Shown piece after piece: positions 412-20,000 of a stretch of 20,000 bases of DNA (positions within the stretch are counted from its first letter, which is position 1; the number at the start of each line of letters is the position of its first letter). Where the stretch lies: positions 51,157-71,156 of IMG/VR virus record IMGVR_UViG_3300044712_002681; one strand, written 5' to 3'. The notes under the pieces were generated by a model, which saw only the letters and a list, made by a program, of their open reading frames with translations, did no database searches and was not told the origin of the DNA. A program made the position numbers and the translations under genes. The stretch comes from an uncultured virus (IMG/VR IMGVR_UViG_3300044712_002681) (lineage: Duplodnaviria; Heunggongvirae; Uroviricota; Caudoviricetes).

Positions 412-1146
412 TTATAATTTTATTTTATTTTCTTCATTTTTGAAAAATGTTTTTACAACTTCCATCAACCAACAAGCATCAATGATATCATCTAATGGTT
501 TAGGTACATCTTTATTTTTTCTTATTTTTTCTTCATATTCTTTACACCAAGTCTTTAAATCACATTTGATATTATTACAATCTAAAAATGCATAAAACAT
601 ATCCCATTTGTCAAATTTAGTTGCTTGCTTACCATTATTATTTTCTAAATGAATAACTTCTTTTATTATTCTTTTTCCTTGAAGTTCTTTTCTTGGTTCA
701 TATGTCATTCGACAACATTCAGTTTTAACTGTAAGTGGTGATAATATTTGAACATTTGAATATTTATTCAATTTATGTAATAATTTATGTTTTAATAACG
801 TAGTAAATTCAACAATATCAATAAGTGGTCCAACATTAGAACTATAACTATATCCTTCTATTCCAATTCTAATACTATCTAATAAACCAACATTATCAAT
901 AATATCATTAATTATTAAATTTGTTGTGTCATCGAATTCTAATAATTTTAAAATTTGTGATTTACTGTAATCTTTTTCTTCAGTATATTTATATATAATA
1001 TTTCGATAATTTATAAAGTCTTCAGTATTTTTTACCCATATATTATTATCTTTTTTAGTTGAATAACTAAAAAGTTTAATATTGTCATTTTTTTCTATAC
1101 ACATCGCTGTTGAAATTTTACTCACATCTAATCCAATAAAAATCAT
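412..1146 (-). CDS. ruvC: RuvC-like Holliday junction resolvase (RNase H fold)
   Basis: N-terminal IGLDVSKISTAMC (catalytic D), central IGIEGYSYSS (E), C-terminal DDIIDA (D..D): canonical RuvC acidic arrangement. Confidence 0.8.
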   Translation of the reverse strand: MIFIGLDVSKISTAMCIEKNDNIKLFSYSTKKDNNIWVKNTEDFINYRNIIYKYTEEKDYSKSQILKLLEFDDTTNLIINDIIDNVGLLDSIRIGIEGYSYSSNVGPLIDIVEFTTLLKHKLLHKLNKYSNVQILSPLTVKTECCRMTYEPRKELQGKRIIKEVIHLENNNGKQATKFDKWDMFYAFLDCNNIKCDLKTWCKEYEEKIRKNKDVPKPLDDIIDACWLMEVVKTFFKNEENKIKL

Positions 1147-1197: not shown

Positions 1198-1578
1198 ATG
1201 AAAACATTTAATGAATTTATAAATGAAAATTTTGATGAAGATATTGAAGATGATGAAGAATTCTTTGATGATTATTCAAAAATAAAAAATGAACTTAATA
1301 CTATTTTTGGTAAAGGATTTGGAAATGATGCTAATTGGGCTGGTGTAGTTTGGCCTATATTAACAAAAAATGATTATGAAGGTATATTTATATATTTGGG
1401 TGATGATGATGAACTTTTTTTATTAAAAAGAACTTTTGATAAAATTAAAGAAGAAAATAATGATGAAATATTATTTAGTGTAACTAATAGGGAAGAATTT
1501 GATAAATTAATAAAGTTAGCTAAAGATAAAGAACAAATAAAAATGTTACAAAATGCAAAAAAATATAATGTTATTTAA
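1198..1578 (+). CDS. Hypothetical protein with capsid-targeting-like N-terminus (MKTFNEFINE) and C-terminal AKKYNVI
   Basis: 126-aa ORF; N-terminus resembles the T4 internal-protein leader MKTYQEFIAE; C-terminus shared with two other ORFs here. Confidence 0.75.
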   Translation: MKTFNEFINENFDEDIEDDEEFFDDYSKIKNELNTIFGKGFGNDANWAGVVWPILTKNDYEGIFIYLGDDDELFLLKRTFDKIKEENNDEILFSVTNREEFDKLIKLAKDKEQIKMLQNAKKYNVI

Positions 1579-2696: not shown

Positions 2697-2895
2697 TTTT
2701 GATTTATTTAGTTTATTTGATGATAATAATTTCATTGAAGATAATATTATCATTGAAAATAAAAAAGATGGTAGTTGTATAATATGTGATACAATTCTCG
2801 AAGTTTGTAGAAATAATATAACTGGGTATTATGAACCTATTTTATGTCCATCGTGTCTGTTGGATATGTCTAATTTTATGAATAGAAAGTCATAA
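2689..2895 (+). CDS. Small putative Zn-finger protein
   Basis: CIIC...CPSC pairs in a 68-aa ORF coupled to the upstream gene. Confidence 0.6.
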   Translation: MNDFDLFSLFDDNNFIEDNIIIENKKDGSCIICDTILEVCRNNITGYYEPILCPSCLLDMSNFMNRKS

Positions 2896-3255
2896 AATAT
2901 TATATTTTTTAGCTGATTTATATATATCTTGTAATTTTTTATATTTTTTAATTTCTTTTGGTGTTAATTTTCGAATAATTTCACTATCATCAATAGCAAT
3001 GTTTGAATCATCATTATCATATGTTTTTATTGAATATGGTAATTTACAATCTAATACAGAATAGATTCTTGCCATATTAACTAATGGTGGTGAAACTTTA
3101 AAATTACCATCTATTAATGCTTTCTTTATTTTATCTAAATCTAATAAAATATAATCACCAAATTTATATGTAAAACCTGATTCTTTATCAGTGAATTTGA
3201 ATTTATTATTCCAATCATCAATTTCAATTTCTTCAAATGTTTTTAAATATTTCAT
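2890..3255 (-). CDS. Tagged-family protein (MKYLKTFEE ... SAKKYNIL)
   Basis: ORF 2890..3264; ATG at 3255 lies just past the upstream stop (3257-3259) and yields the shared N-terminal motif; internal KFGDYIL. Confidence 0.75.
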   Translation of the reverse strand: MKYLKTFEEIEIDDWNNKFKFTDKESGFTYKFGDYILLDLDKIKKALIDGNFKVSPPLVNMARIYSVLDCKLPYSIKTYDNDDSNIAIDDSEIIRKLTPKEIKKYKKLQDIYKSAKKYNIL

Positions 3256-3256
3256 A

Positions 3257-3586
3257 TTATTCATAATTCACATATCCTAAAGTATCATCACCTAAACCTA
3301 AACCAATTCCAATTGTACAATTACCATTTAATGGGTTATTAATTCCGATTACACAAGGTTGAACAATATCGTTTTGTGGAATGTTTGGTGTAATATAATA
3401 TTTAAGTCGTTCTTTTTCTTTTTTTTCTATTTGTGTTACATTACCATTATCATCAATAAAATTATATACATTTAAATTTGTAATACCTGATGTATTACCC
3501 GTATTAACGATATTTGAAGTGGATATATTTGTAAATCCACTATTAATTGTTGTATTTAATGCTGTTGAAAATGATAATCTTCCCAT
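3257..3586 (-). CDS. Hypothetical protein, possibly virion-associated
   Basis: 109-aa N/T/G-rich ORF with three [ST]GxT motifs; 1-nt coupling to upstream gene. Confidence 0.6.
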   Translation of the reverse strand: MGRLSFSTALNTTINSGFTNISTSNIVNTGNTSGITNLNVYNFIDDNGNVTQIEKKEKERLKYYITPNIPQNDIVQPCVIGINNPLNGNCTIGIGLGLGDDTLGYVNYE

Positions 3587-3900
3587 TATAATATATTATA
3601 TTTTTTTGCTTTAATTTTTATTTTTAAATTTTCTAAATTTTTTGCATATGTTGTATAATCAACATGAACACTTTTTGTCGGAATATTATTAATTTTTCCG
3701 AAATATTTTATTAATTCTTCTGGAATATTTTCATATGTTATAGCAATTATATCATTTTGAATGTGATATATGTTACCAATATTATCTCTTAAAAAATTAT
3801 TTATTTTAGTTTCTTGAAATATAGGCAATTTATCAGCAATAATAAAATCCCCAATTTCTGGTTTATTTAAATCTTCAAATATTTTAAAAGCCGTTATCAT
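3586..3900 (-). CDS. Tagged-family protein (MITAFKIFE ... KAKKYNIL)
   Basis: 104-aa ORF with both shared terminal motifs and internal EIGDFII. Confidence 0.75.
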   Translation of the reverse strand: MITAFKIFEDLNKPEIGDFIIADKLPIFQETKINNFLRDNIGNIYHIQNDIIAITYENIPEELIKYFGKINNIPTKSVHVDYTTYAKNLENLKIKIKAKKYNIL

Positions 3901-3923: not shown

Positions 3924-5232
3924 GAATTATATATAAAAAATTTTTTAGTAAAAAACCATATTTTTTAAATTATATATACTTATACTAAAAAACAATATTG
4001 GTATAAATGAAAATAATTAAATATACATATAAGTTTAGATTAGTACCAAATAATGATCAAATAAATCTATTAAGTAAACATTTTGGTTCTGTTAGATGGA
4101 CTTATAATTATTTTTTGAATCAAAGAAAAAAAGAATATTTAAATAATAAAAAAACATTAACATATAATAAACAATCTAGTTTTCTAACACAATTAAAGAA
4201 AGATAAAGAAACCGAATGGTTGAAAGAAATAAATTCACAGACATTACAATATTCTTTAAAATGTCTAGATACTGCTTATCAATGTTTTTTTTCAGGAAAA
4301 TCAAAATTTCCAAAATATAAATCGAAAAAAAATAAAAATTGTTTTACAATACCCCAATTTGTATCAGTAAAGAATAATAAACTTCATATACCAAAATTTA
4401 AAGATGGAATTGAAATGATAATGGAACGAAAAATAAGTGGTGTGGTTAAACGATCAACAATAAGTAAAACACCAACAGGCAAATATTTTGTAACAATTTT
4501 AACAGAACAAGAATATCAACCTGTTAGTAAAACAAACCAATCTGTAGGAATAGATTTAGGAATAAAAGATTTTTTAGTGTTATCTAATGATTCGAAAATC
4601 AAGAATCATAGATTTCTAAAACATTATGAAAAAAAATTAATTTTAAATCAAAAATATTTATCAAGAAAAACTAAAGGGTCAAATCGTTATGAAAAGCAAA
4701 AGATTAAAGTTGCTAGGATTTATGAAAAAATTACAAATTCACGGATGGATTTAATTCATAAAACTACTACATCTTTGATAAAACAATTTGATACTATATA
4801 TTTAGAAGACTTGAATGTGAAAGGAATGATGAAAAATCATAAATTAGCAAAAGCTATTAGTGATGTTAGTTGGGGTAAATTCATAGATATTCTTGAATAT
4901 AAAGCCAATTGGAATGATAAACAAGTCATTCGTATAGATAGATTTTTTCCTTCAAGTAAAACCTGTTCTAAATGTGGTTGGATTAATAATAATTTAACAC
5001 TTAAAGATCGAAATTGGATTTGTCCAAAATGTGGTGAAAAACATGATAGAGATTTTAATGCAGCAACAAATATCCTTAATGAAGGATATCGTAAAAATAT
5101 ATCAGATGGAACGTCTGATTACGAACGTGGAGCAAAAATAAGACCATCCGATGGCATAAGCAATGAAACGTTTAAAGTGAAGGAACATTGTGTTCCCGAA
5201 ACCACTACATTATTAGTGTAGTGGTAGTTCAT
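3924..5232 (+). mobile_element. IS200/IS605-family tnpB-only (IS1341-like) element; left boundary tentative
   Basis: tnpB without tnpA; right-end hairpin ACCACTACA(5201-5209)/TGTAGTGGT(5217-5225) followed by AGTTCAT. Left end inferred from empty-site reconstruction. Confidence 0.6.
4007..5221 (+). CDS. tnpB: RNA-guided endonuclease TnpB
   Basis: YKFRLVP HTH start, RWTYNYFL, RuvC-I GIDLGIKDF, RuvC-II YLEDLNVKGM, Zn finger SSKTCSKCG/CPKCG, RuvC-III HDRDFNAATNI; D-E-D triad intact. Confidence 0.95.
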   Translation: MKIIKYTYKFRLVPNNDQINLLSKHFGSVRWTYNYFLNQRKKEYLNNKKTLTYNKQSSFLTQLKKDKETEWLKEINSQTLQYSLKCLDTAYQCFFSGKSKFPKYKSKKNKNCFTIPQFVSVKNNKLHIPKFKDGIEMIMERKISGVVKRSTISKTPTGKYFVTILTEQEYQPVSKTNQSVGIDLGIKDFLVLSNDSKIKNHRFLKHYEKKLILNQKYLSRKTKGSNRYEKQKIKVARIYEKITNSRMDLIHKTTTSLIKQFDTIYLEDLNVKGMMKNHKLAKAISDVSWGKFIDILEYKANWNDKQVIRIDRFFPSSKTCSKCGWINNNLTLKDRNWICPKCGEKHDRDFNAATNILNEGYRKNISDGTSDYERGAKIRPSDGISNETFKVKEHCVPETTTLLV

Positions 5233-5252
5233 TTGTAGAAATTTGTGAAATA
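5060..5252 (+). ncRNA. Predicted TnpB omega/reRNA (scaffold overlapping tnpB 3' end plus flank-derived guide); ends approximate
   Basis: Established TnpB architecture; the segment after the last RuvC motif is less AT-rich and ends in the 9-bp hairpin and TTCAT. Confidence 0.5.
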
Positions 5253-8200
5253 TATGTATTATTTAATGTATTAACTTTAACAATAGTTTCTACCGAAGTA
5301 TTTAATGCTGTACTATCTACAACAATATTACTATGTATTCTATCACTAGATACATAATCTGTTGTTTGATAATATTTCATATTGGTTAAATCAAAATTAT
5401 GATTGACTAACCAATGATTTCTTGGTTCATCATAATAAAATAATTTATTATTAACATATCCTAAACCATTACCATCATTATCATATGTTGTAGTTTCTAT
5501 GTATATATATGGATCAATATATTTATCAATATTAAAACTGAATGGTTTCAAATCATTTTTATTAATTTTAAAATATTGAACAGGAACTAATATATCTGTT
5601 GGATTATAGATTGTACTACCTGATAGATAATATGTCTTTATTTTGGCTGAAAAGCTAATTGGTGTGGCATTATTATCAATTGTTGTTCCAGTTATTCCTG
5701 ATAAAGTATAAAAATTAATTGTTATAAGATAATCTGATCCAAAATTTAATGTTGCGGTATAATCAAAATTAACCACTGTTGAATTTCTTTCAACAACTGA
5801 CATTTTAGTTTGATTACTTTCATCATAATCTTGATATAATGTTTGATTTGTATCGGAAACACCTGTAATATCTAATAAGTTAGCTGAAATTGGAATAATA
5901 TTTTTTCTTAACCATTTTTTTAATTTGGTTAATTTATATTGAACATCATCTAATGAATAAATTAAAACATTATTACCATCTTCATCAGTTATTCTATATG
6001 ATAAATTAAATAAATTTGTTTTTTTCCAAGTATTTTGTTGTTGATATTTACCAGCAATAAAATCCATTTCATTCCAACCTTCTACACTATTATCGAAAAT
6101 GTCAGGAATTAATACTTTATGTAATTTTCCATATAAATAAGATGATTTATCAATATTTTTGTAATATTCATATAATTGTAAATCATTGTATCCAAAATAA
6201 TTAATTGCATTAATTAATGATTTATATGAACCAATATAATCATATATATCTCTACATATTAATAACATTTCTTTTCTTTTTTGATTAAATATTGTATAAT
6301 CTATTGCATTATCATTTATATCTGATTCATATAAAATTTCATAAACATCTTCTTCTGATTGAACACCTAAATTATTGAGATTAACTTTATAACGAATATC
6401 TTCAATTTCAGTTTGACCATAAACAGGACAAGATAATATTTCTTTTGGTTGAACTTCTATTTTAAATTTAAATGTAGTACCTGTTGATGTGAAATATGTA
6501 AATCCTGATGAATTGTAAGTTGTTCCACTATCATATAAATTAAATTCGTTATTATTAACATATTCAGAATCAATTATAATTTTATTTCTCGAAACATCTT
6601 TTATTTTATATGTATAAACATTTTCAAATATTCGTTGTTTCATTTTACTTTGGTCAGTAAAATAAAACTTCACCAATTGATCTTTTTCAAATCCATATGA
6701 TATAAAACTAAAATCAATGGGTGCTTTATATTCTAATATTGAATCATTAAATATAAAGTTTGATGTAGCATATGATGAACCCGAATTTGTAAATCCACTA
6801 TAAGAAAAATAATCGCTATTATTTTCGTGTTTTTCAATTTTTTCAATTTTTAAAATTCTACTATTTACACCTTCTTCTGTTGCATTATAACCCATAAATA
6901 TTTCTAATGGTTCTGGTATCCAATTATAACTTGTTGATGAATCCAATTGTTCTAATTTAAATGTTAATCCTGTAAAAATTGTTTGTTGATATTTTGGATT
7001 TGATATTCTTGTTAAATCTTTATTTGGTAAATCATTAAGAAATACAACATTTTCGGTTGAATCAATTAATGGTTTTTGTCCAATATATTTATATGCATCA
7101 TTATTGTTATAAGGTACTAATTGATCACCTGTAATATCATATAAAAATATAGAATTATCTATAATATTATCATACGATACTTTCCAATATGCATGAAAAT
7201 AAATATCACGATTATATTTTCCTCTAGGTTTTCTAATAAATTCACGAGTTTTACAATGAATATTAACATTATCTTCTGATAAGAATATCCCTTGATATGA
7301 TAAAGAAATTGTATCTTCTGTTAAACCAATAATATTATATTCTTTATTATTTTCATTATAAGTCGAGCCTGATACCTTTAAAATCATACCTGTAGCTAAT
7401 CCAATATCAAATAAGTTTACTATTGTTTTAATTTCATTACCTGAAAATAATAATGCCCTATTTCTATTATTTTGAAGAATATTATAAGATGATAAAATAT
7501 TAACCAATACTTCTAATTCCCAAATATCTATATCGGTATTTATTGTTAATGTGTAGCCAGAATATGCTATATTATAACCACTATTTACAATAAACCCATT
7601 ACTATATAATATTGTTCCATATTTATTTATAAATGAATTTATGGTTGTTTGTGTATTACCTGAAAAATTTGTAAAATATTCTATACCATTTAAAGTTAAT
7701 CTAAATCCAAATCTATCTGTATCATTATTTAGTTCGAATAATATTTCAGATTCAATTTGATTTTTATATAGACCACTATCTGATTTATTAGTTTTTTCAT
7801 CATATATTTTTTCATTAGTTATAATATCGTATTTATTTGATGATAATGATAAATCATTAGATATTTGTATTCCATTTGTATAACCAGAAACATTAAAATA
7901 TGGATGTTTAGCACCATATAAACTTTCAATTGTTAAATAGTGATCATTATTTTTTAATGAATAATAAATATCTATTCCATATTCAGATAATATTGATTTA
8001 TATTTAGTAATAAAATTATTTATTGTATTTTGAATAACGTCAGTTGTGCTACCACTAGAATAAATTTGAGAAAAATTTAAAAAATTTGTGGTCAAAAAAC
8101 AATATGAATTATTATATGATGTATTATTAAATTCTGTAATATTACCACTAGGTGTAGAATATGCACTTCTTATTTGGTGTGGTTGTAATTTTTGATATAT

Positions 8201-9418
8201 ATTATATGTTAATCCTGTTTCATCAAAAATAAATCCTGGTGTAAATATTATAGTTGTATTTGTACTACTATTGTATGATACATTACTAATACTCAATTCC
8301 CTGTTATTCATTAAATATGTGTAACCCGTAGAAGTTCCACTTAATAATATTACATCACCTGTATTAAGATTAGTATATCCAGTAAATTGAATAGTGTTCC
8401 ATTGATTTGTTTGATTTAATGTATTTGTATAATTATTTGTTTGTTGATAATATTGCTTAAATAACAATTTTTTAGTTGTTATAAATTTTTCATCTATTAA
8501 TTCATCAACAATAAAAGTATAACCACTAAATAATTTATTACCATTACCATCTTCAAATTGTATTTCTTTTTTTGATAAATCTGAACCTGTTGATGTATAA
8601 ATAATATCTGGTGCTAAATTACTAATATTTTTGTTAAATGTTAAAATATTTCCATTTAAAGTAATTTCACCTTGATAAATTTTAGGTCTTTCTGTAAAAA
8701 GTTCAATCTTTAAATTAAAAATATTATCCTTTACACCATTTAATTTTAATTCATTAATATATGATAATGTTAATCCGCTTTGCTTCACACTAACAATTGC
8801 ATCATTATAATCCGAATTTAATATTGAAAATTTTTTATTTTCATAAAGATTACTAAAAAAAGTATCACTCGATAAATTTCTATTATAATCGTTTATTGAT
8901 ATTACGTTTAATGAACTTGTATAACCAGATGGAATATATGAAAAATTAAAAATATCATTTGCTGTATTAGTAACAATTAAGAATGCATGTTTTTTTACAG
9001 ATAATACTGTAAAATATTGGTCATCACTAAAATCACTTGATCCTGTCACACCTGACAAAGATACTATTGTTCCAACTGGAAATTTTTTATGAAAGTCTGT
9101 ACCATATATCCATTTGGAATAAAAATTATTTGATTCATTTACTTTTTGAATATTTGTAATCAATTCATTTTGAAAATTAGTTTCACCTTTAATAGTTAAT
9201 CCACTATTATTATTATAATTTATATTAATTAAGTCAGCAGTACTTATAAAATCAATAGGTTCTACAGTTTCAAATATATGTAAACTTTGTGTTTTAAATG
9301 TTTGATCCGAATTTTCATCAAATAAAATTTTTCCTTCCCAACTTTCAGTATCTTCATTATATTGAAAATTATGTGGAAATCCTTCTTTAGTAAAGAATAT
9401 AATGTTTTTATTATTCAC
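5213..9418 (-). CDS. Large putative virion structural protein, possibly baseplate wedge-type
   Basis: 1401 aa, GTG start, N/T/S/Y-rich; IYDYIGSYKSLINAINYFGY resembles the KGT..(A/G)I...L...G motif of baseplate wedge/P2 gpI-like proteins; 21 [ST]GxT motifs by hand count. Confidence 0.6.
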   Translation of the reverse strand: MNNKNIIFFTKEGFPHNFQYNEDTESWEGKILFDENSDQTFKTQSLHIFETVEPIDFISTADLININYNNNSGLTIKGETNFQNELITNIQKVNESNNFYSKWIYGTDFHKKFPVGTIVSLSGVTGSSDFSDDQYFTVLSVKKHAFLIVTNTANDIFNFSYIPSGYTSSLNVISINDYNRNLSSDTFFSNLYENKKFSILNSDYNDAIVSVKQSGLTLSYINELKLNGVKDNIFNLKIELFTERPKIYQGEITLNGNILTFNKNISNLAPDIIYTSTGSDLSKKEIQFEDGNGNKLFSGYTFIVDELIDEKFITTKKLLFKQYYQQTNNYTNTLNQTNQWNTIQFTGYTNLNTGDVILLSGTSTGYTYLMNNRELSISNVSYNSSTNTTIIFTPGFIFDETGLTYNIYQKLQPHQIRSAYSTPSGNITEFNNTSYNNSYCFLTTNFLNFSQIYSSGSTTDVIQNTINNFITKYKSILSEYGIDIYYSLKNNDHYLTIESLYGAKHPYFNVSGYTNGIQISNDLSLSSNKYDIITNEKIYDEKTNKSDSGLYKNQIESEILFELNNDTDRFGFRLTLNGIEYFTNFSGNTQTTINSFINKYGTILYSNGFIVNSGYNIAYSGYTLTINTDIDIWELEVLVNILSSYNILQNNRNRALLFSGNEIKTIVNLFDIGLATGMILKVSGSTYNENNKEYNIIGLTEDTISLSYQGIFLSEDNVNIHCKTREFIRKPRGKYNRDIYFHAYWKVSYDNIIDNSIFLYDITGDQLVPYNNNDAYKYIGQKPLIDSTENVVFLNDLPNKDLTRISNPKYQQTIFTGLTFKLEQLDSSTSYNWIPEPLEIFMGYNATEEGVNSRILKIEKIEKHENNSDYFSYSGFTNSGSSYATSNFIFNDSILEYKAPIDFSFISYGFEKDQLVKFYFTDQSKMKQRIFENVYTYKIKDVSRNKIIIDSEYVNNNEFNLYDSGTTYNSSGFTYFTSTGTTFKFKIEVQPKEILSCPVYGQTEIEDIRYKVNLNNLGVQSEEDVYEILYESDINDNAIDYTIFNQKRKEMLLICRDIYDYIGSYKSLINAINYFGYNDLQLYEYYKNIDKSSYLYGKLHKVLIPDIFDNSVEGWNEMDFIAGKYQQQNTWKKTNLFNLSYRITDEDGNNVLIYSLDDVQYKLTKLKKWLRKNIIPISANLLDITGVSDTNQTLYQDYDESNQTKMSVVERNSTVVNFDYTATLNFGSDYLITINFYTLSGITGTTIDNNATPISFSAKIKTYYLSGSTIYNPTDILVPVQYFKINKNDLKPFSFNIDKYIDPYIYIETTTYDNDGNGLGYVNNKLFYYDEPRNHWLVNHNFDLTNMKYYQTTDYVSSDRIHSNIVVDSTALNTSVETIVKVNTLNNTYISQISTNELPLH

Positions 9419-9436: not shown

Positions 9437-9491
9437 TATATATAAAAAATCAAATTCTTATATAAAAAATAATTTTAAATGTTAATATATA
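9437..9491. promoter_or_regulatory. Pair of TATATA-core putative promoters for divergent genes
   Basis: TTTTTATATATA on minus strand (9437-9448) before 9418; TAATATATA (9483-9491) before 9496. Confidence 0.45.
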
Positions 9492-9495
9492 CAAT

Positions 9496-9792
9496 ATGTC
9501 AAAAATAAAAAAAGTTGAATATATTGAAGATGGTAAACTATATAAAACCCAATTTTTATATTGGTGTTTAGGTTGTGGATATGAACATGCATTTTCATTA
9601 AAAGAAAATGGTGGTTATCATATATTTAATATGGATTTAGAAAATCCTACAGTTTCACCGTCATTATTACAAAATTTTGTGCCAGGTAAATTATGTCATT
9701 CATTTATTATAGATGGAAAAATTCAATATTTAAATGATTGTGATCATAAATTAGCAGGTCAAATTATTGATATTCCAGAATATCCAATATAA
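9496..9792 (+). CDS. Cys/His metal-binding protein (DUF6527-like)
   Basis: WCLGCGYEH, FNMDLENPTVSPSLL, CHSFIIDGKIQYLNDCDHKLAGQ match a conserved small family recalled as DUF6527. Confidence 0.65.
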   Translation: MSKIKKVEYIEDGKLYKTQFLYWCLGCGYEHAFSLKENGGYHIFNMDLENPTVSPSLLQNFVPGKLCHSFIIDGKIQYLNDCDHKLAGQIIDIPEYPI

Positions 9793-9801
9793 AATGATTA
9801 T

Positions 9802-10626
9802 ATGATTACACAATTTAAAATTTTTGAATCTGAAAATGAAATAACTGTGCCAGATGTTGCTTGGTTATATTTTTTACATTATTGTTATAAAGGTAAAATG
9901 AAAGTGGATGTATGGAAAACTGACACAAGAATGGATGGAATTTCTTGTCAAGAAGCTTTAAGTAAATTTGATTGTGTTAAAATAATAGATGGTAATTTTA
10001 TATCAACAAAAGACTGCGAAAAAATAATTGACAAGTATTTTGGATCTAAAACCTTTGATGAAGCAGTAAAATCACAAAAAAAATTAGAAAAATATGATAC
10101 ACCAACCACTACTTATGTTAACGTATTTGATCGTAAATATCCAATAAGTAAAATTGCATATGAATTATTTATTAAATTTAAAAATCCAAATATTGACAAG
10201 GCTTTTGATAAAATACGAGAAATGATAATAATTCATTTTAATTCACAGCGTTCGTTGAAAAATATTTTAGAAAAAATGTCAAAAATGAGACATATTGATA
10301 AATGGAATTATAAAACTGCATATAAAATGTTTGATGGAAATATTCCAGAAAAAATTATAATTTATAGGGGATTAAAAAATGATTATAATCCAAATTATAA
10401 TTTAGAATATTCGTGTTGGACTACATCAATAAAGGAAGGTGAAAGATTTGCAAAATATTTATTTTCTGGTGGACGACAATTTAAGCCAAAATATTCAGAT
10501 GATCCTACAATGTTAGTTGCGGAAGTAAATCTTGATGATATTGCAATATTTATTGGTGGGGATGAATCTGAAGTTATAATGAAAGGTGATGTTGAAATTA
10601 AAGAAATTATAAAAATAACAATATGA
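9802..10626 (+). CDS. Putative ADP-ribosyltransferase (R-S-E type) with N-terminal tag MITQFKIFE
   Basis: IIIYRGL, YSCWTTS...ERFA, DESEVIM in correct order and spacing in the C-terminal ~90 aa. Confidence 0.7.
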   Translation: MITQFKIFESENEITVPDVAWLYFLHYCYKGKMKVDVWKTDTRMDGISCQEALSKFDCVKIIDGNFISTKDCEKIIDKYFGSKTFDEAVKSQKKLEKYDTPTTTYVNVFDRKYPISKIAYELFIKFKNPNIDKAFDKIREMIIIHFNSQRSLKNILEKMSKMRHIDKWNYKTAYKMFDGNIPEKIIIYRGLKNDYNPNYNLEYSCWTTSIKEGERFAKYLFSGGRQFKPKYSDDPTMLVAEVNLDDIAIFIGGDESEVIMKGDVEIKEIIKITI

Positions 10627-11135
10627 AATATTTAAAATATTTTGAAAATGAATTAATTTATAAAACCCATCGTGGTGAAATATATAAACACGATGATAAA
10701 ATATTGAAAATTACAAAGGATGTTATTGAATATAATAATGCATTAATTTTGATTAATAATCCTTCTAAATATTTTATTAAATATTATTCAGCTAAAAAAA
10801 TATCAGATGATAAATTCGAATTAATAATGGAAAAAATAATACCATTAAATGATGATGAATCTGATATGGTTGATTTAATTCAAAATACATTAGGTATTGA
10901 AGAATATATGTTAGATGATAATAAAAGATATAATTTTATTAAAGAATTAAAAAATAATCCCGAATATTATGAAGATTTTTGTTCATTTAATGAAATAATA
11001 AATATGATTAATTTATTAAAAAAAATGTATATAGAAGCTAAATATAGAAATATTAAATTGTATGATTTAAGAAGTTCAAATATAGGTAAAACTATTGATA
11101 ATAATATAGTACATTTTGATTTGGGTGCAGGTTAA
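10623..11135 (+). CDS. Minimal protein-kinase-like protein with N-terminal tag MKYLKYFE
   Basis: GEIY, ILKIT (beta3 Lys), following Glu, LIMEKI hinge, YDLRSSNIG catalytic loop, VHFDLG (DFG-like). Confidence 0.7.
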   Translation: MKYLKYFENELIYKTHRGEIYKHDDKILKITKDVIEYNNALILINNPSKYFIKYYSAKKISDDKFELIMEKIIPLNDDESDMVDLIQNTLGIEEYMLDDNKRYNFIKELKNNPEYYEDFCSFNEIINMINLLKKMYIEAKYRNIKLYDLRSSNIGKTIDNNIVHFDLGAG

Positions 11136-11149
11136 AAAAAATAATAAAA

Positions 11150-12058
11150 ATGAAATATTTAAAATATTTTGAAAGTAAACAACGTGGTAATCTTTATCAT
11201 ATATTCGATTTAAAAAAATGTCATCACATTTTAAAAACAAATACAATTGAATCATATAAGTTTACAAATATATCAACAACTAGAAATAAAATGATGAATG
11301 GTTATCTTGGTGATTCCCCTATATCAATATTTAAATTAGAATTAGATGGTGATAAATTAAGCAATAAATATAAAATAAAGCCAATTACGTATCCATCAAC
11401 AGAAATTGGTATTGGTGGTGAAAGAAGACCTATTCGTTTAGAAGAATTTGAAGAAGTTATTTTAACTGATCAGATAAAAAATATAAATCAATATGTTAAA
11501 AAATTTATAATAATTAAATCACGGGTTGAAAGAATGATAGATTCCGGGTGGTTTGATAGTGATGGTGGATATTTTGATGATGAAGATTCAAAAAGAATTA
11601 CATTACCTGAATTTTTAAAGAAAAATATAGCAAAAATAAAAGAATTATTTGGTGATATTTATATTCAGGATGACACAAGAATAATTAAAGATGATCAATG
11701 GTTAGAAAATATTATAAATCATCCAATTAAGCAAATAAATCATGGGTATTGTTTATATTGGAGAGGATATAAAAAATCACCAAATTTCAATCGTGGTGTT
11801 ATTGATGATGTTCAACCATTCGATAAAAGAAATAAAAAAATTGATAAATTGGTCATTGGATGGGATTATAATAATCTATATTTAAGTAAAAATAATAAAT
11901 TTGATAATTTGCCAAAAGCTCGAGATAATTATAATTTGTATTCATTTGATTTTGAATACGAACCAGTTGATATTATTAGTGAAACAGTTGATAGTGTTCA
12001 TATAAAAAAAGGGTATTTGGGTAATATTGATTTGATTATAAAAAAGAAAATATTTTAA
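11150..12058 (+). CDS. Putative ADP-ribosyltransferase-fold protein with N-terminal tag MKYLKYFE
   Basis: LYHIF, ISTTRN, FKLELDG, EEFEEVI: H-S/T-ExE arrangement reminiscent of the ART fold; C-terminal half unassigned. Confidence 0.5.
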   Translation: MKYLKYFESKQRGNLYHIFDLKKCHHILKTNTIESYKFTNISTTRNKMMNGYLGDSPISIFKLELDGDKLSNKYKIKPITYPSTEIGIGGERRPIRLEEFEEVILTDQIKNINQYVKKFIIIKSRVERMIDSGWFDSDGGYFDDEDSKRITLPEFLKKNIAKIKELFGDIYIQDDTRIIKDDQWLENIINHPIKQINHGYCLYWRGYKKSPNFNRGVIDDVQPFDKRNKKIDKLVIGWDYNNLYLSKNNKFDNLPKARDNYNLYSFDFEYEPVDIISETVDSVHIKKGYLGNIDLIIKKKIF

Positions 12059-13059: not shown

Positions 13060-13395
13060 TTATTCTGATTCTTTTTGTGATTTTTTAATTTTTTTCAATT
13101 TTATTTTTCGTACTTCTCTAAGTATAGCTTTTTCCCAATCATCTTTTTTTTCAAAAAGTTTTCCTTTATAATAATATTTGTCAAGATCAGGATTTTCATA
13201 ATCTATTGCTGGACCATTTAATCTGTGATAAATCCCCATTTTCTTATATTCAGTTCTGTCTTTATATTTTATAATATTATTAGTTATATTATTGGTTAAC
13301 CAGGAATCAACATTAACTTTATTTTTATAAAAATCTATTAATTTTTCAGTTTTTTCTATATCCTTCTTAGAATTAATTTCATCAAATTCATCCAT
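13060..13395 (-). CDS. Hypothetical protein with one HRxxGPA repeat unit
   Basis: YHRLNGPAIDY...KYYYKGK, a motif common in phage and giant-virus proteins; basic RKIKLKKI tail. Confidence 0.7.
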   Translation of the reverse strand: MDEFDEINSKKDIEKTEKLIDFYKNKVNVDSWLTNNITNNIIKYKDRTEYKKMGIYHRLNGPAIDYENPDLDKYYYKGKLFEKKDDWEKAILREVRKIKLKKIKKSQKESE

Positions 13396-13414
13396 ATTAT
13401 ATATTTCCTTTTTA

Positions 13415-13450
13415 TTTTTTTAATATATAAAGATAAATAGAAAAAGTTGA
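13415..13450. promoter_or_regulatory. TAATATATA putative promoter between divergent genes
   Basis: TTTTTTTAATATATA ending 13429, ~25 nt before ATG 13454. Confidence 0.45.
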
Positions 13451-13453
13451 TAC

Positions 13454-15886
13454 ATGCAAAAAAATAAATGGAATAGAAAAGTTGATTGGATTAAAAGTGG
13501 ATCAACTTATATTCAACAAAGTCGAACTGAATTATATGATGAAAATAAGGTTATTGCTGTTGGTGATATTTATTTTAGGTTAAATAAGTATTTAACTGGT
13601 GTCACTTTCACATATATTAATAGTTTAAATAACATATATAAAAAAGACTTATTAACAGGTGATGGATATTCTATTGTTAATATGTATAATGAATATGATG
13701 TTATTGATAGGGCAATGAAGAATATTATTCAAGTTGATATTGCAGCAGATACAAATATTGATTTAGATTTACAATGGTTTGAAATAAATGGTGTTAAACT
13801 TAAACCTGGACATTTAGTTTTATTAAAAAATCAAAATTCTGAATTTCAAAATGATATTTATTATGTAAGTGATCAATATTTTTTAGAAATTACAGATTAT
13901 TTATCAACTCGTGAAAAATCGGATAAATTTAGTTGTAGTATAAAATTAGGTAAAAATTTTGATAAACAATTTTTCTTGGTTAATAATGGATTTGAATTTC
14001 CAATACAACATGAACCTAAACATTTTATTGAAGGTAAATCATTTATACTTAAAAATATAATTAAATATGATGGGTTATATAATACCCGAACAGATTCTGA
14101 AGGAACATCAAAAATGATTTTCACTGATGTTGATTTGGCAAGAAAACAAATATTTGATAATGTAGATAAATATTCAGATATTATTTTAACAGGAATAACA
14201 GCTATAAGTGTCCCAGATAATTATTTAACAATAAATTATCATTATGATTCATATACCATTAGGTCAGGTATAACAGAAGAAATGTTTTATACTGGAATAA
14301 CATCTGATATTAAAAATGATATTGTAAAAGGTTTCACAACAATTTATATTCCATCAACATTTAATTGTCAAACGGATGATTATATTAATTTAAAAATATA
14401 TAGTGGATCAACCATTACTTTAGATTTAAATAGTTTTATTAAAGATAATTTAACATCATATGTAGTTTTAGAAGAAACGATTCCAAATAATATTATAACT
14501 AATTTACAAAATTGTACATATATAATTAGTAATTATAATGTTGCATATAATTGGTATGATGCTTTAGAAAAAGCAAATTTTTCACCATATTCTAATTTTT
14601 TCACCCTTACTGCATATACATATAATGTAGATATTACAGATTTTATAAATATTCAAATTTTTCCAAAAGAATATGAATATGATAAATATTTTGATTATAA
14701 TGGATTAAGTTTTGATTTTACAGATTCAATTGATCCATATTTTCATTCATTTTTTTACACAAGTAATCAATATATTAAATATGATTTATATGATAAGTTA
14801 TATCAAATAAATAATACAGGATTTACTGCAAATTTTTCTATATTTAATGAAAATATATTAAGTGGTTTTACATATAGATATACTGATGATAGTAGAATTA
14901 GAATTACAACATCAATATCGGGTATAACTAACAATTTTAAACCATATACTTATGTGTATGCATCTGCGGATGGTCAAATAACACAAAAAACTTTAGTGTA
15001 TGATGTTAATGATTATGAAATAATTATATCAAGACCAAAAATATGGACACAATATCCAACACAAACGCAATTACCATCATTAACATCAGTACAAAATATA
15101 GATGGTTTAAAAAATATATCAGATATTTTATATGAAGTATATTTAAATGATGATTTATATTCAAATGAAAAAAAATATATTGCGAAATCTTACGCAGAAT
15201 TGTTAACAAGTAATAGTTTTTTTAGATTGAATGTAACTGGTATTCTTTATGAAAATAATAATAATGAATATATTTTAAAATTATATGATTTGGGAAAAGA
15301 ACTTGGTGGTAATGATCAATATTTACATTTTGTTTCCAATGAGTTAATTTATGTTGGTAGTGATAGAATAACAAGATTACCTGTATCATTAAAAACATTA
15401 TCTGGTTATACTTATACATCAAGTATAATGACAGGAACAACAATTATATATGATTTTAATACACTTAATTGGAATGTTTTAAATGGTGGGGAAGATGATA
15501 TTTCATATTCACCTATATGTGATTCTGGAAATAATCTTATTTTATCACCAATTAGTGTTGTGCCACTTGTATATAATGTTATAAATGGTGGTATTGATTC
15601 AACTTACGGTTCAATTACAACGACAACGACAACAACTGTTTTACCGACAACGACAACGACAACAACTGTTTTACCGACAACGACAACGACAACAACTGTT
15701 TTACCGACAACGACAACGACAACAACAACATTAATGCCAACAACGACATTAATGCCAACAACAACATTAATGCCAACAACGACATTAATGCCAACAACAA
15801 CATTAATGCCAACAACGACATTAATGCCAACAACGACATTAATGCCAACAGTATTCGAAATATTTGGACAATTATATCAGATTTAA
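13454..15886 (+). CDS. Putative virion structural protein with Thr/Pro-rich C-terminal tail
   Basis: 810 aa; INGVKLKPGHLVLLKNQNSEFQNDIY resembles the IDGV.L..GDRVLVKNQ...NGIY motif of phage tail/fibre proteins; 11 [ST]GxT motifs. Confidence 0.65.
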   Translation: MQKNKWNRKVDWIKSGSTYIQQSRTELYDENKVIAVGDIYFRLNKYLTGVTFTYINSLNNIYKKDLLTGDGYSIVNMYNEYDVIDRAMKNIIQVDIAADTNIDLDLQWFEINGVKLKPGHLVLLKNQNSEFQNDIYYVSDQYFLEITDYLSTREKSDKFSCSIKLGKNFDKQFFLVNNGFEFPIQHEPKHFIEGKSFILKNIIKYDGLYNTRTDSEGTSKMIFTDVDLARKQIFDNVDKYSDIILTGITAISVPDNYLTINYHYDSYTIRSGITEEMFYTGITSDIKNDIVKGFTTIYIPSTFNCQTDDYINLKIYSGSTITLDLNSFIKDNLTSYVVLEETIPNNIITNLQNCTYIISNYNVAYNWYDALEKANFSPYSNFFTLTAYTYNVDITDFINIQIFPKEYEYDKYFDYNGLSFDFTDSIDPYFHSFFYTSNQYIKYDLYDKLYQINNTGFTANFSIFNENILSGFTYRYTDDSRIRITTSISGITNNFKPYTYVYASADGQITQKTLVYDVNDYEIIISRPKIWTQYPTQTQLPSLTSVQNIDGLKNISDILYEVYLNDDLYSNEKKYIAKSYAELLTSNSFFRLNVTGILYENNNNEYILKLYDLGKELGGNDQYLHFVSNELIYVGSDRITRLPVSLKTLSGYTYTSSIMTGTTIIYDFNTLNWNVLNGGEDDISYSPICDSGNNLILSPISVVPLVYNVINGGIDSTYGSITTTTTTTVLPTTTTTTTVLPTTTTTTTVLPTTTTTTTTLMPTTTLMPTTTLMPTTTLMPTTTLMPTTTLMPTTTLMPTVFEIFGQLYQI
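15617..15850 (+). repeat. Coding tandem repeats: 30-bp x3 (TTTTTTTVLP) then 18-bp x~7 (LMPTTT)
   Basis: acaacgacaacgacaacaactgttttaccg and ttaatgccaacaac(g/a)aca units read directly. Confidence 0.95.
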
Positions 15887-15935: not shown

Positions 15936-16514
15936 ATGGCTAGAATTGATGCGAATGCTAGAATAATAATAAAACAAAGTACAGTTTCGGGTGAAACTGC
16001 ATCTCTTGCACCATTAAGTGTTAATGGTACATATGATCATACATTGTTACCATCTTGGAATCCAAGTGATATATATATTGGTGAATTTTTTATGAATGAA
16101 CCTGATGAAAAATTGTGGATCCGATTAAATAGTACAACTATTAAAAGAATTTTATTAGAAGGTGATGTCGTATCAAGTTCCGGTGGAACACCTGGCACAT
16201 CAGGTACATCAGGCACATCTGGGATTAATGGTACATCAGGCACATCTGGGATTAATGGTACAATAACAGGTGTTACAATACATAATGATTTTTATTATAA
16301 TTCAGGGAATACAACATTATATGTTCCAAAAATAGTAACATCTGAAATGTTTTTAACAGGTTTAACATCATCTGGATTAACTAATTATTTAGTTTCTGAT
16401 AATAATGGTAAATTATTTAAAACTAATGTAAATGTAAATACGACTGATGTTATTATTGGTGCAGTAACATTACATTTTGTAAACGGTTTATTTACAGGGT
16501 GTGATGGATGTTAA
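15936..16514 (+). CDS. Putative virion/fibre-associated protein with short Gly-X-Y stretch
   Basis: IGEFFMNEPDEKLWI resembles the GE..N..D.KL motif of fibre N-termini; [16 protein letters not shown] repeat; ends LHFVNGLFTG. Confidence 0.6.
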   Translation: MARIDANARIIIKQSTVSGETASLAPLSVNGTYDHTLLPSWNPSDIYIGEFFMNEPDEKLWIRLNSTTIKRILLEGDVVSSSGGTPGTSGTSGTSGINGTSGTSGINGTITGVTIHNDFYYNSGNTTLYVPKIVTSEMFLTGLTSSGLTNYLVSDNNGKLFKTNVNVNTTDVIIGAVTLHFVNGLFTGCDGC

Positions 16515-17033: not shown

Positions 17034-20000
17034 ATGAGTGGTCAAACTTTTTATAATCCAGTTGAATATGGTTATGAAATTGAATCTAGGATAGTACCAG
17101 AATATAATAATGCTAATCCTAGACAAATTTATGCTATGTTGGAAGATTATTATCTACATGGTGGGTTTAGGGTTTGTGACACTATTCAAGGTGTATTACC
17201 ATTTCCAGAAGAATATGAAATAGATATACCAATACCAAATTATAGAAATTATATCACATTTGACAAAAGAAAGTTGGGTATGATTGTCTATACTTTAGAT
17301 GATGGTAAATTTTGGCAATTAATAAATAATCCAAGCGAATCTTTCCCACCATATTTTGATCGTAATGATAGAACATTAACAACAAATTTTGATTGGATTG
17401 AATTGAATTTTTTTAATTCCTTTGAATCAATAAATTATGATAATAGTACAGGTGAATTAATTTTATCATTTAGTAAAACATATAATTCGGGTGCAACATA
17501 TGAATATAGTGGTAATACTATAACTGAAATAATAACAGGTTTAACATATTTAAATAATAAATTAAGTGGGTTAACTGATGTTAATACTTCTGAATCAGAA
17601 AATTATCAATTTTTAATTTATTATAATGGATTTTGGGTAAATTCTGGTGTATCATTTACATCTGGAACATCAGGAAATGATGGATCATCTGGTACTTCTG
17701 GTGTTGATGGTATATTTTTCGGTAGTTCGGGAAGTTCAGGTACATCAGGAACAAATGGTACATCAGGAACAAATGGTACATCAGGAACAAATGGTACATC
17801 AGGAAGTTCAGGATCATCAGGAAAATCAGGAACAAATGGTACATCAGGAAGTTCAGGATCATCAGGAAGTTCAGGAACAAATGGTACATCAGGTAGTTCA
17901 GGATCATCAGGAAAATCAGGAACAAATGGTACATCAGGTAGTTCAGGATCATCAGGAAAATCAGGAACAAATGGTACATCAGGTAGTTCAGGATCATCAG
18001 GAAAATCAGGAACAAATGGTACATCAGGTAGTTCAGGAACAAATGGTACTGATGGTGAATCAGGATTATTTGGTGGTGATAGTCAACCATATAAATTTTC
18101 TTCTAATATATCATATGATGATCCTACTAGTTGTTATTTAAGTTTTAATAACGAAAATTATGATGATATAACTAAAATTTGTGTTAGTATTGAAAATAAT
18201 GATAATGTTGAAATTGGTGTATGGTTATATAGTTTAACTGCCAATGGTATGTCTAGATTTAGAATTTTTGATAGAAATAATTCTACAAATTTTATAATAT
18301 TTAATATAGATAATAGTGTTGATAATGGAACGTGGTTTTCTTTTGATGTAACAGTAATAACATATAATAATAATTTTAATTTAAATGATAATATTGTTTT
18401 AACATATACAGATTCTGGTGATGGTACATCTGGAACATCAGGTTCATCTGGTGTGGATGGAAATTTTTATGGATCATCAGGAACATCAGGTACGAATGGA
18501 ACATCAGGTACGAATGGAACATCAGGTACGAATGGAACATCAGGTACGAATGGAACATCAGGTACGAATGGAACATCAGGTACGAATGGAACATCAGGTA
18601 CGAATGGAACATCAGGCACGAATGGAACATCAGGTACGAATGGAACATCAGGTACGAATGGAACATCAGGTACGAATGGAACATCAGGTACGAATGGAAC
18701 ATCAGGAACATCAGGCACGAATGGTTCGAACGGTAGTTCGGGAAGTTCTGGTACTTCAGGTGTAGATGGAAATTTTTATGGGTCATCAGGTAGTTCTGGT
18801 AGTTCGGGAACGAATGGTACGTCGGGTAATTCTGGTAGTTCTGGTAGTTCTGGTAGTTCAGGTACATCAGGTATTGGTACATCAGGAAGTTCGGGTACGT
18901 CGGGTACACAAGGATTATTTGGTGGTGATAGTCAACCATATAAATTTTCAACAGATATTATACCATATTTTGGTTATTTAACATATAATAATATTAATCC
19001 TGAATTTGTAACTAATATAAATATTAATACCAACAATATAGATAATGTAAATATTGGACCATGGCTATTAAATATTTTAGATAATGGGGTATCTAGATTT
19101 AAAATTTTTGATAGGATAAATTCTACAAATTTTGCAGTATTTATAATAAATAGTAAAGTTGATAATGGTGATTATTTTTCATTTAGTGTAATTAATGTTA
19201 CATGGAATAATCTTTTTAATATAAATGATAATATAGTTTTAACATATATTCCTGGTATAAACGGTACATCTGGCACATCTGGCACAAACGGTACATCTGG
19301 CACAAATGGCACATCTGGCACATCTGGCACATCTGGCACAAACGGTACATCTGGCACAAACGGTACATCTGGCACAAACGGTACATCAGGAAGTTCGGGT
19401 ACGTCAGGTAATGGTACATCAGGAAGTTCGGGTACGTCAGGTAATGGTACATCAGGAAGTTCGGGTACGTCAGGTAATGGTACATCAGGAAGTTCAGGTG
19501 TTAATGGTACATCAGGAAGTTCAGGTGTTAATGGTACATCAGGAAGTTCAGGTGTTAATGGTACATCAGGTAGTTCAGGTGTTAATGGTAGTTCAGGCAC
19601 ATCGGGTAGTTCAGGCACATCAGGTTCAGGTACATCAGGTAGTTCAGGCACGAATGGTAGTTCAGGTACATCAGGTAGTTCAGGCACGAATGGTAGTTCA
19701 GGCACATCGGGTAGTTCAGGTACGAATGGTAGTTCAGGTACATCAGGTAGTTCAGGCACATCAGGTAGTTCAGGCACATCAGGTAGTTCAGGTACATCAG
19801 GTAGTTCAGGTACATCAGGTAGTTCAGGTACATCAGGTAGTTCAGGCGTTAATGGTACATCGGGTAGTTCAGGTACGAATGGTAGTTCAGGTACATCAGG
19901 TAGTTCAGGCACGAATGGTAGTTCAGGTACATCAGGTAGTTCAGGCACGAATGGTAGTTCAGGTACATCAGGTAGTTCAGGCACGAATGGTAGTTCAGGT
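17034..20000 (+). CDS. Partial (>988 aa) fibre-like protein: Gly-X-Y (GTS/GTN/GSS) blocks alternating with duplicated ~115-120-aa globular domains
   Basis: Absent from ORF track because no stop in window. Manual translation [24 protein letters not shown]...HGGFRV...[19 protein letters not shown]..., frame stays open to the window end. Confidence 0.85.
17664..18062 (+). repeat. Gly-X-Y block 1 (18-bp and 45-bp units)
   Basis: ggaacaaatggtacatca units and a 45-bp [15 protein letters not shown] unit. Confidence 0.9.
18423..18911 (+). repeat. Gly-X-Y block 2 including 12 x 18-bp array (18480-18695)
   Basis: ggaacatcaggtacgaat x12, one copy with a ggc variant. Confidence 0.9.
19254..20000 (+). 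repeat. Gly-X-Y block 3 (mixed short units), runs off window
   Basis: ggcacaaacggtacatct, ggtacatcaggaagttcaggtgttaat and ggtagttcaggtacatca units. Confidence 0.9.

Follow-up and report, generated by a model that had tools for sequence, protein, structure and literature searches.

Tagged ADP-ribosyltransferase-like and kinase-like proteins of a Mahaphage-related megaphage as candidate head-loaded cargo

The window analysed here is a stretch of 20,000 nucleotides (nt) from the uncultured virus IMGVR_UViG_3300044712_002681, in which three adjacent genes, P0001, P0002 and P0003, each begin with a short N-terminal tag and encode a predicted ADP-ribosyltransferase (ART), a kinase-like protein and a second ART-like protein. 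We consider it probable, at roughly 0.58, that these are late-made enzymes which are loaded into the phage head and ejected with the DNA, with P0001 as an ART of arginine type, P0002 as a kinase of loose specificity and P0003 as an enzyme that uses NAD+ and has the Tpt1/DarT fold. Within this reading, the three proteins are independent and interchangeable members of a cargo class of about 80 proteins, and not a dedicated three-part system. The parent record (G001) is a linear virus record of 501 kb, rated 70% complete, with the window at its end; 729 open reading frames (ORFs) of at least 60 amino acids (aa) were called in it from ATG starts only. ART1 and ART2 denote the families of P0001 and P0003, L numbers denote loci and G numbers denote related records.

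The N-terminal tag, the ATATATA element and the head genes of relatives

The tag was described by two patterns near the protein start, [LIFV]-x-x-[FY]-E (class A) and [FY]-x-x-[FY]-[LIV]-x-E (class B). These patterns were found in 92 of the 729 ORFs (75 class A, 18 class B, one of them both), against a mean of 13.7 after shuffling (maximum 24) and 9–17 at internal positions. They were written after 87 ORFs had been viewed, and 73 of the 92 matches fall in the 430 kb that was read later. About 14 of the 92 are expected to be false, as with four integrase-repeat proteins and one ABC permease. The tag is missing from each of 20 annotated replication or metabolism genes. In a scan of 91 proteins (86 of the 92 tagged ones and five others), the tagged proteins mostly gave no family; those that did include three ART-PolyVal matches (two over the cut-off), one Nudix, one HNH and two ankyrin proteins. 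The four integrase-repeat (PF14882) proteins lie in tandem beside a helicase at L026:2218–7829 (158–164 kb of G001), where the tag matches are probably false.

Counted from the methionine, classes A and B have in common a pattern of hydrophobic or aromatic residues at positions 4 and 7, which are L4 and F7 in P0002 and P0003, and F5 and F8 in P0001. In phage T4, residues 4 and 7 serve targeting and residues 8 and 10 serve processing, with the protease gp21 cutting after L/I-x-E (PMC9026906). When translated from the T4 record, the internal proteins (IPs) IPII and IPIII conform to class B, and IPI has F4 and F7. For class A, 31 of the 74 ORFs have an L/I-x-E motif within 14 residues; for class B it is 16 of the 18, and among untagged ORFs 94 of the 637. 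The tag varies among the 69 P0003 relatives, which show 62 different strings over the first nine residues; 38 of them match one of the two classes, and a further 23 contain a hydrophobic-x-E. At the DNA level, P0002 and P0003 start with the same 25 nt, and the first 24 nt recur without mismatch in four tagged ORFs and with up to three mismatches in 11.

The opposite end of the proteins also carries signatures. K-[YF]-N-[ILV] (often A-K-K-Y-N-I-L) closes 55 G001 ORFs against a shuffle mean of 0.7, and 37 of these are also N-terminally tagged; none of P0001, P0002 and P0003 ends in this way. This end is probably a protein-level signal, since nine of its bearers precede a gene on the opposite strand. 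A second C-terminal signature, consisting of R-x-x-K-[LI]-x-x-L-like tails, was observed on runs of small untagged ORFs in related phages (L009, L047 and L103–L104).

Of the 44 tagged operon leaders, 38 have the heptamer ATATATA within 60 nt, compared with 102 of the 357 untagged ones (p 1e-13, the best value among all 6- to 9-mers tested). By operon, it stands before 73 of 92 tagged and 166 of 637 untagged ORFs. Its background of 2.5% was taken from mostly coding windows and understates the intergenic chance, so that the fair comparison is that of tagged with untagged leaders. At the 20 replication and metabolism genes, ATATATA was present at two and TAnnTTTG at eight. ATATATA is also found upstream of the G001 tail-fibre gene. 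The nearest relatives by DNA polymerase are four GenBank genomes of 634–735 kb (41–48% identity); in these it precedes gp23 in all four and the gp21-like gene in three as called, and in the fourth when its shorter start is taken. In G006 it precedes both genes, and in G005 the gp21-like gene and not gp23 as called, whose start looks over-extended. From these sequence patterns, ATATATA is read as the late promoter of this phage group. A sigma-70 scan was uninformative (42 sites against 36.6 expected, no terminator). A 404-aa ORF at 4007–5221 with a C-terminal zinc ribbon, whose sequence resembles an IS605-type TnpB, has ATATATA upstream too.

Matches to gp23 were obtained in all four GenBank relatives and in two of five ART2-bearing records. 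A gp21-family match, weak and under the cut-off, was obtained in all four relatives in a gene of 700–800 aa just upstream of gp23. In these protease-scaffold proteins the class B motif recurs 11, 11, 14 and 11 times, mostly every 14 residues, where shuffled sequences average 0.12–0.16 copies; those of G005 and G006 have 14 and 9. The copies are not independent of one another, since they are tandem duplicates. They may represent protease sites, a coiled-coil surface that is joined by the tags, or both.

Taken as a mechanism, the gene run would be transcribed late from the ATATATA promoter common to head genes. The tag of 8–10 residues, hydrophobic at position 4–5 and aromatic at 7–8, would then dock each protein on the prohead scaffold core, with the repeats seen in the relatives' scaffold (9–14 tandem motifs of like kind) as the putative partner; the prohead protease might or might not cut the tag off. 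By the precedent of the T4 IPs and Alt, the proteins would exit the head together with the DNA. In the new host, P0001 would most likely mono-ADP-ribosylate arginines of a host protein, P0002 would phosphorylate host proteins with loose specificity in the absence of an activation segment, and P0003, judged by its fold, would use NAD+ on a nucleic acid or nucleotide. The joint outcome would be that host defence is blunted or host machinery redirected. The sequence-only reading of the window had suggested packaged effectors, and this part of it gains circumstantial support from the ATATATA element common to head genes, the match to IPII and IPIII and the scaffold repeats; its further view of the three genes as a special set is not supported, as the neighbourhood described below illustrates.

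Predicted folds and conserved residues of the three enzymes

The three ORFs were confirmed as adjacent, tagged and on the plus strand, all the motifs first quoted for them are present, and the motif residues are conserved in homologues. Structure predictions agree with the ART, kinase and ART-like folds that had been proposed from the sequence alone, with best Z scores of 7.9 for P0001 and 8.9 for P0003 and template modelling (TM) scores of 0.55–0.62 for the kinase. The folds of P0001 and P0003 were taken from AlphaFold-type predictions of the full proteins, and that of P0002 from its Atlas model. Neither the three proteins nor their alignments yielded a real family in Pfam and PHROG scans, and PDB sequence searches gave chance matches only (protein A repeats for P0002). 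Among annotated phage records, P0001 and P0002 had no match and P0003 had one weak match.

The P0001 family comprises 30 proteins including the query, and the P0001 model is confident (predicted local distance difference test, pLDDT, 89). Residues 181–274 matched TreX best (Z 7.9, root-mean-square deviation (rmsd) 2.4, 80 residues aligned), followed by KptA (Z 7.7, rmsd 2.7, 76 aligned). Diphtheria toxin, Arr and PARPs were also recovered, and chains of the ART superfamily fill most of the 50 matches listed. In the alignment, R189, W206 and T207 are invariant (30/30), position 204 is S in 23 and T in seven of the 30, and E255 and E257 are kept in 28, with two gaps. The predicted strands place R189 in 184–191, S204-C-W-T in 203–207 and E257 in 257–261. 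P0001 is thus modelled with the R-S-E signature (R in strand 1, S in strand 2, E in strand 5) on the split β-sheet of the ART fold. An R-S-E signature with E-x-E is typical of arginine-specific enzymes, and by analogy E255-x-E257 suggests an arginine acceptor. The N-terminal part of the protein gave weak winged-helix matches at residues 10–111 (Z 5.0–5.1) and holds further invariant residues (W38, D41 and R43, and also H145, N147 and S148). One ART1 homologue, at L009:5001–5836, is broken into two ORFs of 135 and 140 aa, which reflects either a genuine break or a sequencing error.

P0003 has 68 homologues and a confident model (pLDDT 93). Residues 8–177 overlay the NAD lobe of yeast Tpt1 (Z 8.9, rmsd 2.6, 111 aligned), which is the only match of at least 8 among the matches listed, and DarT folds at Z 5.5–6.6 (best DarT 6.6, rmsd 4.4, 133 aligned). 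A BFVD search at E 0.001 gave 12 matches, all of them uncharacterised or without a name. The most conserved residues are H17 (65/69) in strand 1, S42 (66/69) and R45 (65/69) of the S-T-T-R stretch in strand 2, and E99, E101 and E102 (each 69/69) of E99-x-E101-E102 in the last core strand. From these residues, P0003 is predicted to be a hybrid H-S-E enzyme that combines a first strand of His type with second and fifth strands of R-S-E type, and it is placed outside the three clades, H-H-h, H-Y-[EDQ] and R-S-E, that are named in PMC9503650. It departs from Tpt1/KptA and its H-H-h signature in that glutamates replace the hydrophobic residue and in that there is no N-terminal RNA lobe, as the domain begins at residue 8. 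Profiles of PF01885 and DarT matched none of the 69 family members, and no DarG/NADAR antitoxin was recognised among the window neighbours of P0003. A Tox-ART-HYD1 match in three of the 69, all distant relatives (E 0.012), is a mere hint.

The C-terminal domain of P0003 gave weak fold matches to BC2332 (Z 5.2), an RbcS-like protein (4.4) and Arr (3.9). Its Y-x-R-G motif is found in 43–45 of 60 full-length members, and it is possibly a second, degenerate ART-like domain. G001 encodes three paralogues of P0003, of which two were tagged when both patterns were searched. The P0001 and P0003 families could not be aligned with each other (probability 0.4%), and the two genes are therefore not regarded as a duplication.

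For P0002, the Atlas model (pLDDT 0.81) resembles APH, Pkinase and T7-kinase clusters at the TM scores given above, and it is closer to other, unnamed viral clusters (TM 0.71–0.78). The structure match to PF27024 has a TM of 0.62, and a feature match of 0.95 was obtained to a cluster with 17% PF27024. The first search found 12 homologues including the query, and a profile search found 238 relatives. An alignment of the query with 92 relatives of up to 270 aa among the profile matches listed (n = 93) showed that K29 (91/93), E36 (90/93), D148 (87/93), N153 (89/93) and D166 (88/93) are conserved. On the model, P0002 would therefore be assigned a protein-kinase-like fold with the Lys, the helix-C Glu, the catalytic D-x4-N and the DFG Asp. 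The chain stops at residue 170, four residues past the DFG-like Asp (F-D-L-G), and consequently has no activation segment; the C-lobe helices are also missing.

Thirty P0002 relatives were scanned for domains. Several long ones have ABC1/APH matches over the cut-off, which stand beside CTP-transferase-like, 2H, pyrophosphatase, GNAT and poly(A)-polymerase domains, and relatives are located within polyvalent-type proteins of 900–2200 aa. A kinase homologue in G002 lies two genes downstream of gp23, without ARTs. Among 150 P0002 relatives, none is fused to either ART family. The close kinase relatives P0114, P0112 and L002:5470–6474 have an additional N-terminal domain, which is GNAT in P0114 and was given no family in P0112.

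Gene neighbourhood and source genome

The trio was found in none of the 13 ART1 loci, 15 ART2 loci and one kinase locus from other records. ART2 lies at most one gene away in two of the 13 ART1 loci (L013 and L080), and the kinase is present in none of the 13; two of them break off directly behind ART1, and two pairs seem to come from one phage each. In L080 (78% identity), ART1 is joined directly to ART2 without a kinase, and in L013 an unrelated tagged gene separates them. The 15 ART2 loci, of which about 11 are distinct, show neither ART1 nor the kinase at a distance of up to 6 kb. Inside the flanks that they share with the window, L083–L085 hold ART2 and other genes, and L087–L088 (G005) hold Nudix and ART2; elsewhere, ART2 adjoins Nudix (also in L090), an ART-PolyVal-like gene (L090) or a paralogue (L089). 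G005, which is 98% complete, has ART2 in the same slot and gave a match neither to ART1 nor to the kinase; the ART1 searches covered 10 records and were run without a positive control. The site is a variable slot that is anchored on ART2 and filled with tagged genes, and the trio is not a conserved unit. With the tag spread over the whole genome and the trio absent from all of these loci, the idea of the three genes as a special set is not supported. T-even phages likewise vary their ip genes behind a constant signal (PMC3012670, PMC12373910), and the 25 identical bases at the P0002 and P0003 starts could aid such cassette shuffling.

The features of the window and of the relatives' head region are listed in Table 1. 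The 111-aa gene of the right flank also follows ART2 in L013, L080, L083–L085 and L087–L088, and the DUF6527 gene is absent from the corresponding place in L004, L080 and L083.

Table 1. Positions of the features discussed, in window coordinates unless a locus is named
Feature	Position	Strand	Description
P0001	9802–10626	+	274 aa; tag, helical/winged-helix-like N-terminal part, predicted C-terminal R-S-E ART domain
Tag of P0001	9802–9828	+	Class A, M-I-T-Q-F-K-I-F-E; holds I7-F-E9, the T4 gp21-type cut motif I-x-E
ART domain of P0001	10342–10623	+	Residues 181–274; predicted minimal domain of 94 residues
P0002	10623–11135	+	170 aa; tag, predicted minimal protein-kinase-like fold; 4-nt ATGA overlap with P0001
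Tag of P0002	10623–10646	+	Class A, M-K-Y-L-K-Y-F-E; without L/I-x-E
P0003	11150–12058	+	302 aa; tag, predicted N-terminal Tpt1/DarT-like ART domain, C-terminal beta domain; 14-nt gap after P0002
Tag of P0003	11150–11173	+	Class A, M-K-Y-L-K-Y-F-E; DNA identical to the P0002 tag; without L/I-x-E
ART-fold domain of P0003	11171–11680	+	Residues 8–177
C-terminal domain of P0003	11735–12049	+	Residues 196–300; weak fold matches
DUF6527/phrog_3362 small Cys/His protein	9496–9792	+	Untagged; heads the four-gene run; E 2.3e-8, over the cut-off
ATATATA	9485–9491	+	Putative phage late-promoter element; 11 nt upstream of the DUF6527 gene
Large unannotated gene	5213–9418	−	Left anchor of the variable slot; same side in L004 and L083–L085
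111-aa and 810-aa genes	13060–15886	− (111 aa), + (810 aa)	Right anchors of the variable slot
Tagged ORF	1198–1578	+	Class B, M-K-T-F-N-E-F-I-N-E; C-terminal K-K-Y-N-V
Tagged ORF	2890–3264	−	C-terminal K-K-Y-N-I
Tagged ORF	3586–3900	−	C-terminal K-K-Y-N-I
Prohead protease fused to scaffold	L065–L068; L101:10024–12429; L102:7699–10155		9–14 Y-x-x-Y-[LI]-x-E repeats; six megaphage records

Judged by its sequence, the phage is a T4-like megaphage related to Mahaphage, a clade with predicted Bacteroidetes hosts (PMC7162821). TAnnTTTG, the −7 promoter element of Bacteroidetes (PMC6847099), occurs within 45 nt of 85 of the 401 operon leaders in G001, most often at −25 to −35; in random windows its frequency is 4.4%. 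Given this element before operon leaders and the predicted hosts of the clade, the host is probably a member of the Bacteroidota. Annotated genes of G001 include many sugar-nucleotide epimerases and glycosyltransferases, RtcB, an RNA ligase, a glutathionylspermidine synthase and three DNA methyltransferases, one of which carries an insert. Elsewhere in the window, a RuvC-like protein at 412–1146 (minus strand) has a weak match to phrog_159, a Holliday junction resolvase (E 0.0025). Thr/Pro-rich and G-T-S-G repeats at 15600–15886, 16150–16250 and 17034–20000 lie in probable fibre or decoration proteins and cause many spurious ORFs in other frames.

Competing explanations and relation to known phage systems

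Several observations weigh against head loading of active enzymes. No gp21 or gp23 match was found in the 501 kb of G001, itself 70% complete, so that the head evidence comes from relatives, which stand at 41–48% identity in DNA polymerase or 41–48% in P0003. T4 Alt, gp21, gp22 and gp23 fall outside the tag patterns, as do 10 further T4 proteins, and no class B copy lies inside gp22. The three genes carry class A, while the class that resembles T4 and the scaffold repeats is B (18 of 92), and of the three only P0001 has L/I-x-E; the protease of this phage may differ from gp21 of T4. Some 80 cargo types also far exceed the roughly ten or more IPs of T-even phages reported in PMC12373910. On the enzymatic side, Foldseek searches of the PDB with P0001 and P0003 gave no match at E 0.001. 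As no fold match of P0001 reaches Z 8 either, its ART assignment rests on the consistency of the fold-match list and on the residues. The Gly-rich loop of P0002 is degenerate, with Y13 and T15 where Gly stands in 62 and 85 of the 93 sequences, and P0002 could therefore be weak or dead.

The tag could instead act as a nucleic-acid module, either for the translation start of late genes or as homology for shuffling, with the enzymes working unpackaged and late in the producing cell. This would suit the identical starts of P0002 and P0003 with their near-copies in other tagged ORFs, the A+T-rich codons of the tag in a genome of about 78% A+T, and the missing Shine-Dalgarno sequences of Bacteroidetes (PMC6847099). 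We hold it to be unlikely, since homologues keep the protein pattern while the letters differ (the 62 strings among 69 P0003 relatives), the 166 untagged ORFs that also lie behind ATATATA imply that the tag is dispensable for late expression, and the protein-level match to IPII, IPIII and the scaffold repeats would be left unexplained. Packaged proteins might also serve another end, in that P0003, and perhaps P0001, would act in RNA repair or in the handling of NAD+ or ADP-ribose signals and not in host-protein modification. The RNA lobe of Tpt1 is N-terminal, and P0003, which begins with its ART domain, has no room for it; P0001 has the R-S-E signature with E-x-E of arginine-specific enzymes. 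The invariant glutamates of P0003 also occupy the place where the H-H-h clade has a hydrophobic residue (PMC9503650). These points make such a role improbable, even though Tpt1/KptA is the best fold of P0003 and KptA the second best of P0001, with the weak winged-helix matches at 10–111 in addition. The same role would draw on the Nudix, ART-PolyVal-like or paralogous genes that adjoin P0003 homologues, on the fusion of kinase relatives to 2H phosphoesterase, CTP-transferase-like and poly(A)-polymerase domains, and on the use of KptA by jumbo phages in tRNA repair (PMC9503650).

There is very little to recommend the three genes as one dedicated module, in which the kinase would switch the ARTs or the trio would behave like a toxin-antitoxin system. 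Its tight spacing (4-nt overlap and 14-nt gap) and the two of 13 ART1 loci with ART2 at most one gene away are outweighed by L080, where the ARTs are joined without a kinase and which largely refutes it, and by the unrelated tagged gene in L013. One ART1 and one kinase homologue have longest contigs of equal length (6785), which may point to a further genome with both. The 15 ART2 loci without ART1 or kinase within 6 kb, the lack of both in G005 and the absence of kinase-ART fusions (0/150) point the same way, and runs of three to four tagged genes occur six times in the genome. Slimmest of all is the chance that the motifs are relics and that the proteins are packaged as core filler or inactive. 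The degenerate Gly-rich loop and the missing C-lobe end of P0002 and the middling fold scores would agree with this, but the residues at catalytic positions are the most conserved columns in the three families at overall identities of 30–60%.

The proposed head loading of three separate enzymes has its closest counterpart in the capsid-targeting sequence (CTS) of T4 and its cargo IPI, IPII and IPIII. Both systems have an N-terminal peptide of about 10 residues on unrelated small proteins, hydrophobic or aromatic at positions 4 and 7, with class B fitting IPII and IPIII and a variable cargo behind a constant signal (PMC3012670, PMC9026906, PMC12373910). They differ in that about 80 ORFs per genome, against three in T4, bear the tag here and that the cargo includes enzymes; the main class A has Glu at 8–9 and mostly no L/I-x-E. 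The scaffold of the relatives is fused to the protease and contains 9–14 class B copies, of which T4 gp22 has none. T4 Alt is packaged and injected (PMC9026906, PMC9958956), and the R-S-E signature with E-x-E and the ART fold of P0001 recall Alt, ModA and ModB. Neither the Alt/VIP2 nor the Mod profiles of Pfam and PHROGs, nor PDB sequences, gave a match to P0001. Its ART domain has only 94 residues, its nearest folds are TreX and KptA, and Alt has no CTS-type tag. Alt, ModA and the T7 kinase gp0.7 (T7K) are absent among the fold matches listed, which excludes nothing.

T7K disarms defences by promiscuous phosphorylation and is marked by a DPV motif and a shut-off domain (PMC13645617). P0002 has in common with T7K and JSS1_004 the phage kinase-like fold (PF27024, TM 0.62), but it has F-D-L-G instead of DPV, no shut-off or DNA-binding domain, a late-type promoter and a tag, and no kinase sequence match in Pfam or PHROGs. 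The likeness to gp0.7 stands at the structure level and not as close homology or in the shut-off domain, and we would predict that P0002 works like a phage kinase without being a member of the T7K family. The N-terminal domain of P0003 overlays the Tpt1 NAD lobe and DarT, with His in strand 1; it differs from Tpt1/KptA and DarT by S-T-T in strand 2, E-x-E-E, the lack of an RNA lobe and the absence of a DarG-like neighbour in view. The virion ARTs and polyvalent proteins of jumbo myoviruses (PMC9503650, PMC7824862) offer a further parallel, with many fast-evolving ARTs and Nudix proposed as head cargo, and the kinase relatives here occur in polyvalent-type proteins. Those predictions came from MuF/portal fusions and context, whereas the present genes stand alone with a common tag and promoter class.

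Packaged ARTs, phage kinases and CTS cargo are already known (PMC9503650, PMC7824862, PMC9958956). What is new is the scale of the tag, the scaffold repeats, three unannotated putative enzyme families and an ART signature that falls outside the three named clades; the grouping of the three genes is itself transitory. Literature searches over open main texts, without supplements such as the viral ART lists of PMC9503650 and PMC7824862, listed no paper on the tag or on these families in megaphages. According to PMC9958956, it is not settled how proteins come to be placed in the scaffolding core of T4, and a CTS-like tag on about one in eight ORFs, together with like repeats in the scaffold of relatives, yields a testable docking hypothesis. 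In its boldest and still doubtful form, the largest known phages would load about 80 proteins by a short helix at the N-terminus, a mimic of the tandem Y-x-x-Y-[LI]-x-E repeats in their own protease-scaffold, the cargo co-assembling with the core, and the injected payload would include a previously undescribed H-S-E class of nucleic-acid ART, a minimal promiscuous kinase and a new family of arginine-specific ART. If this is true, the proteins that uncultured megaphages inject could be predicted from sequence by means of the tag, and the repeats would indicate what the T4-type targeting signal binds. The tag would then serve as a sequence rule by which candidate injected anti-defence proteins of uncultured Bacteroidota megaphages can be listed.

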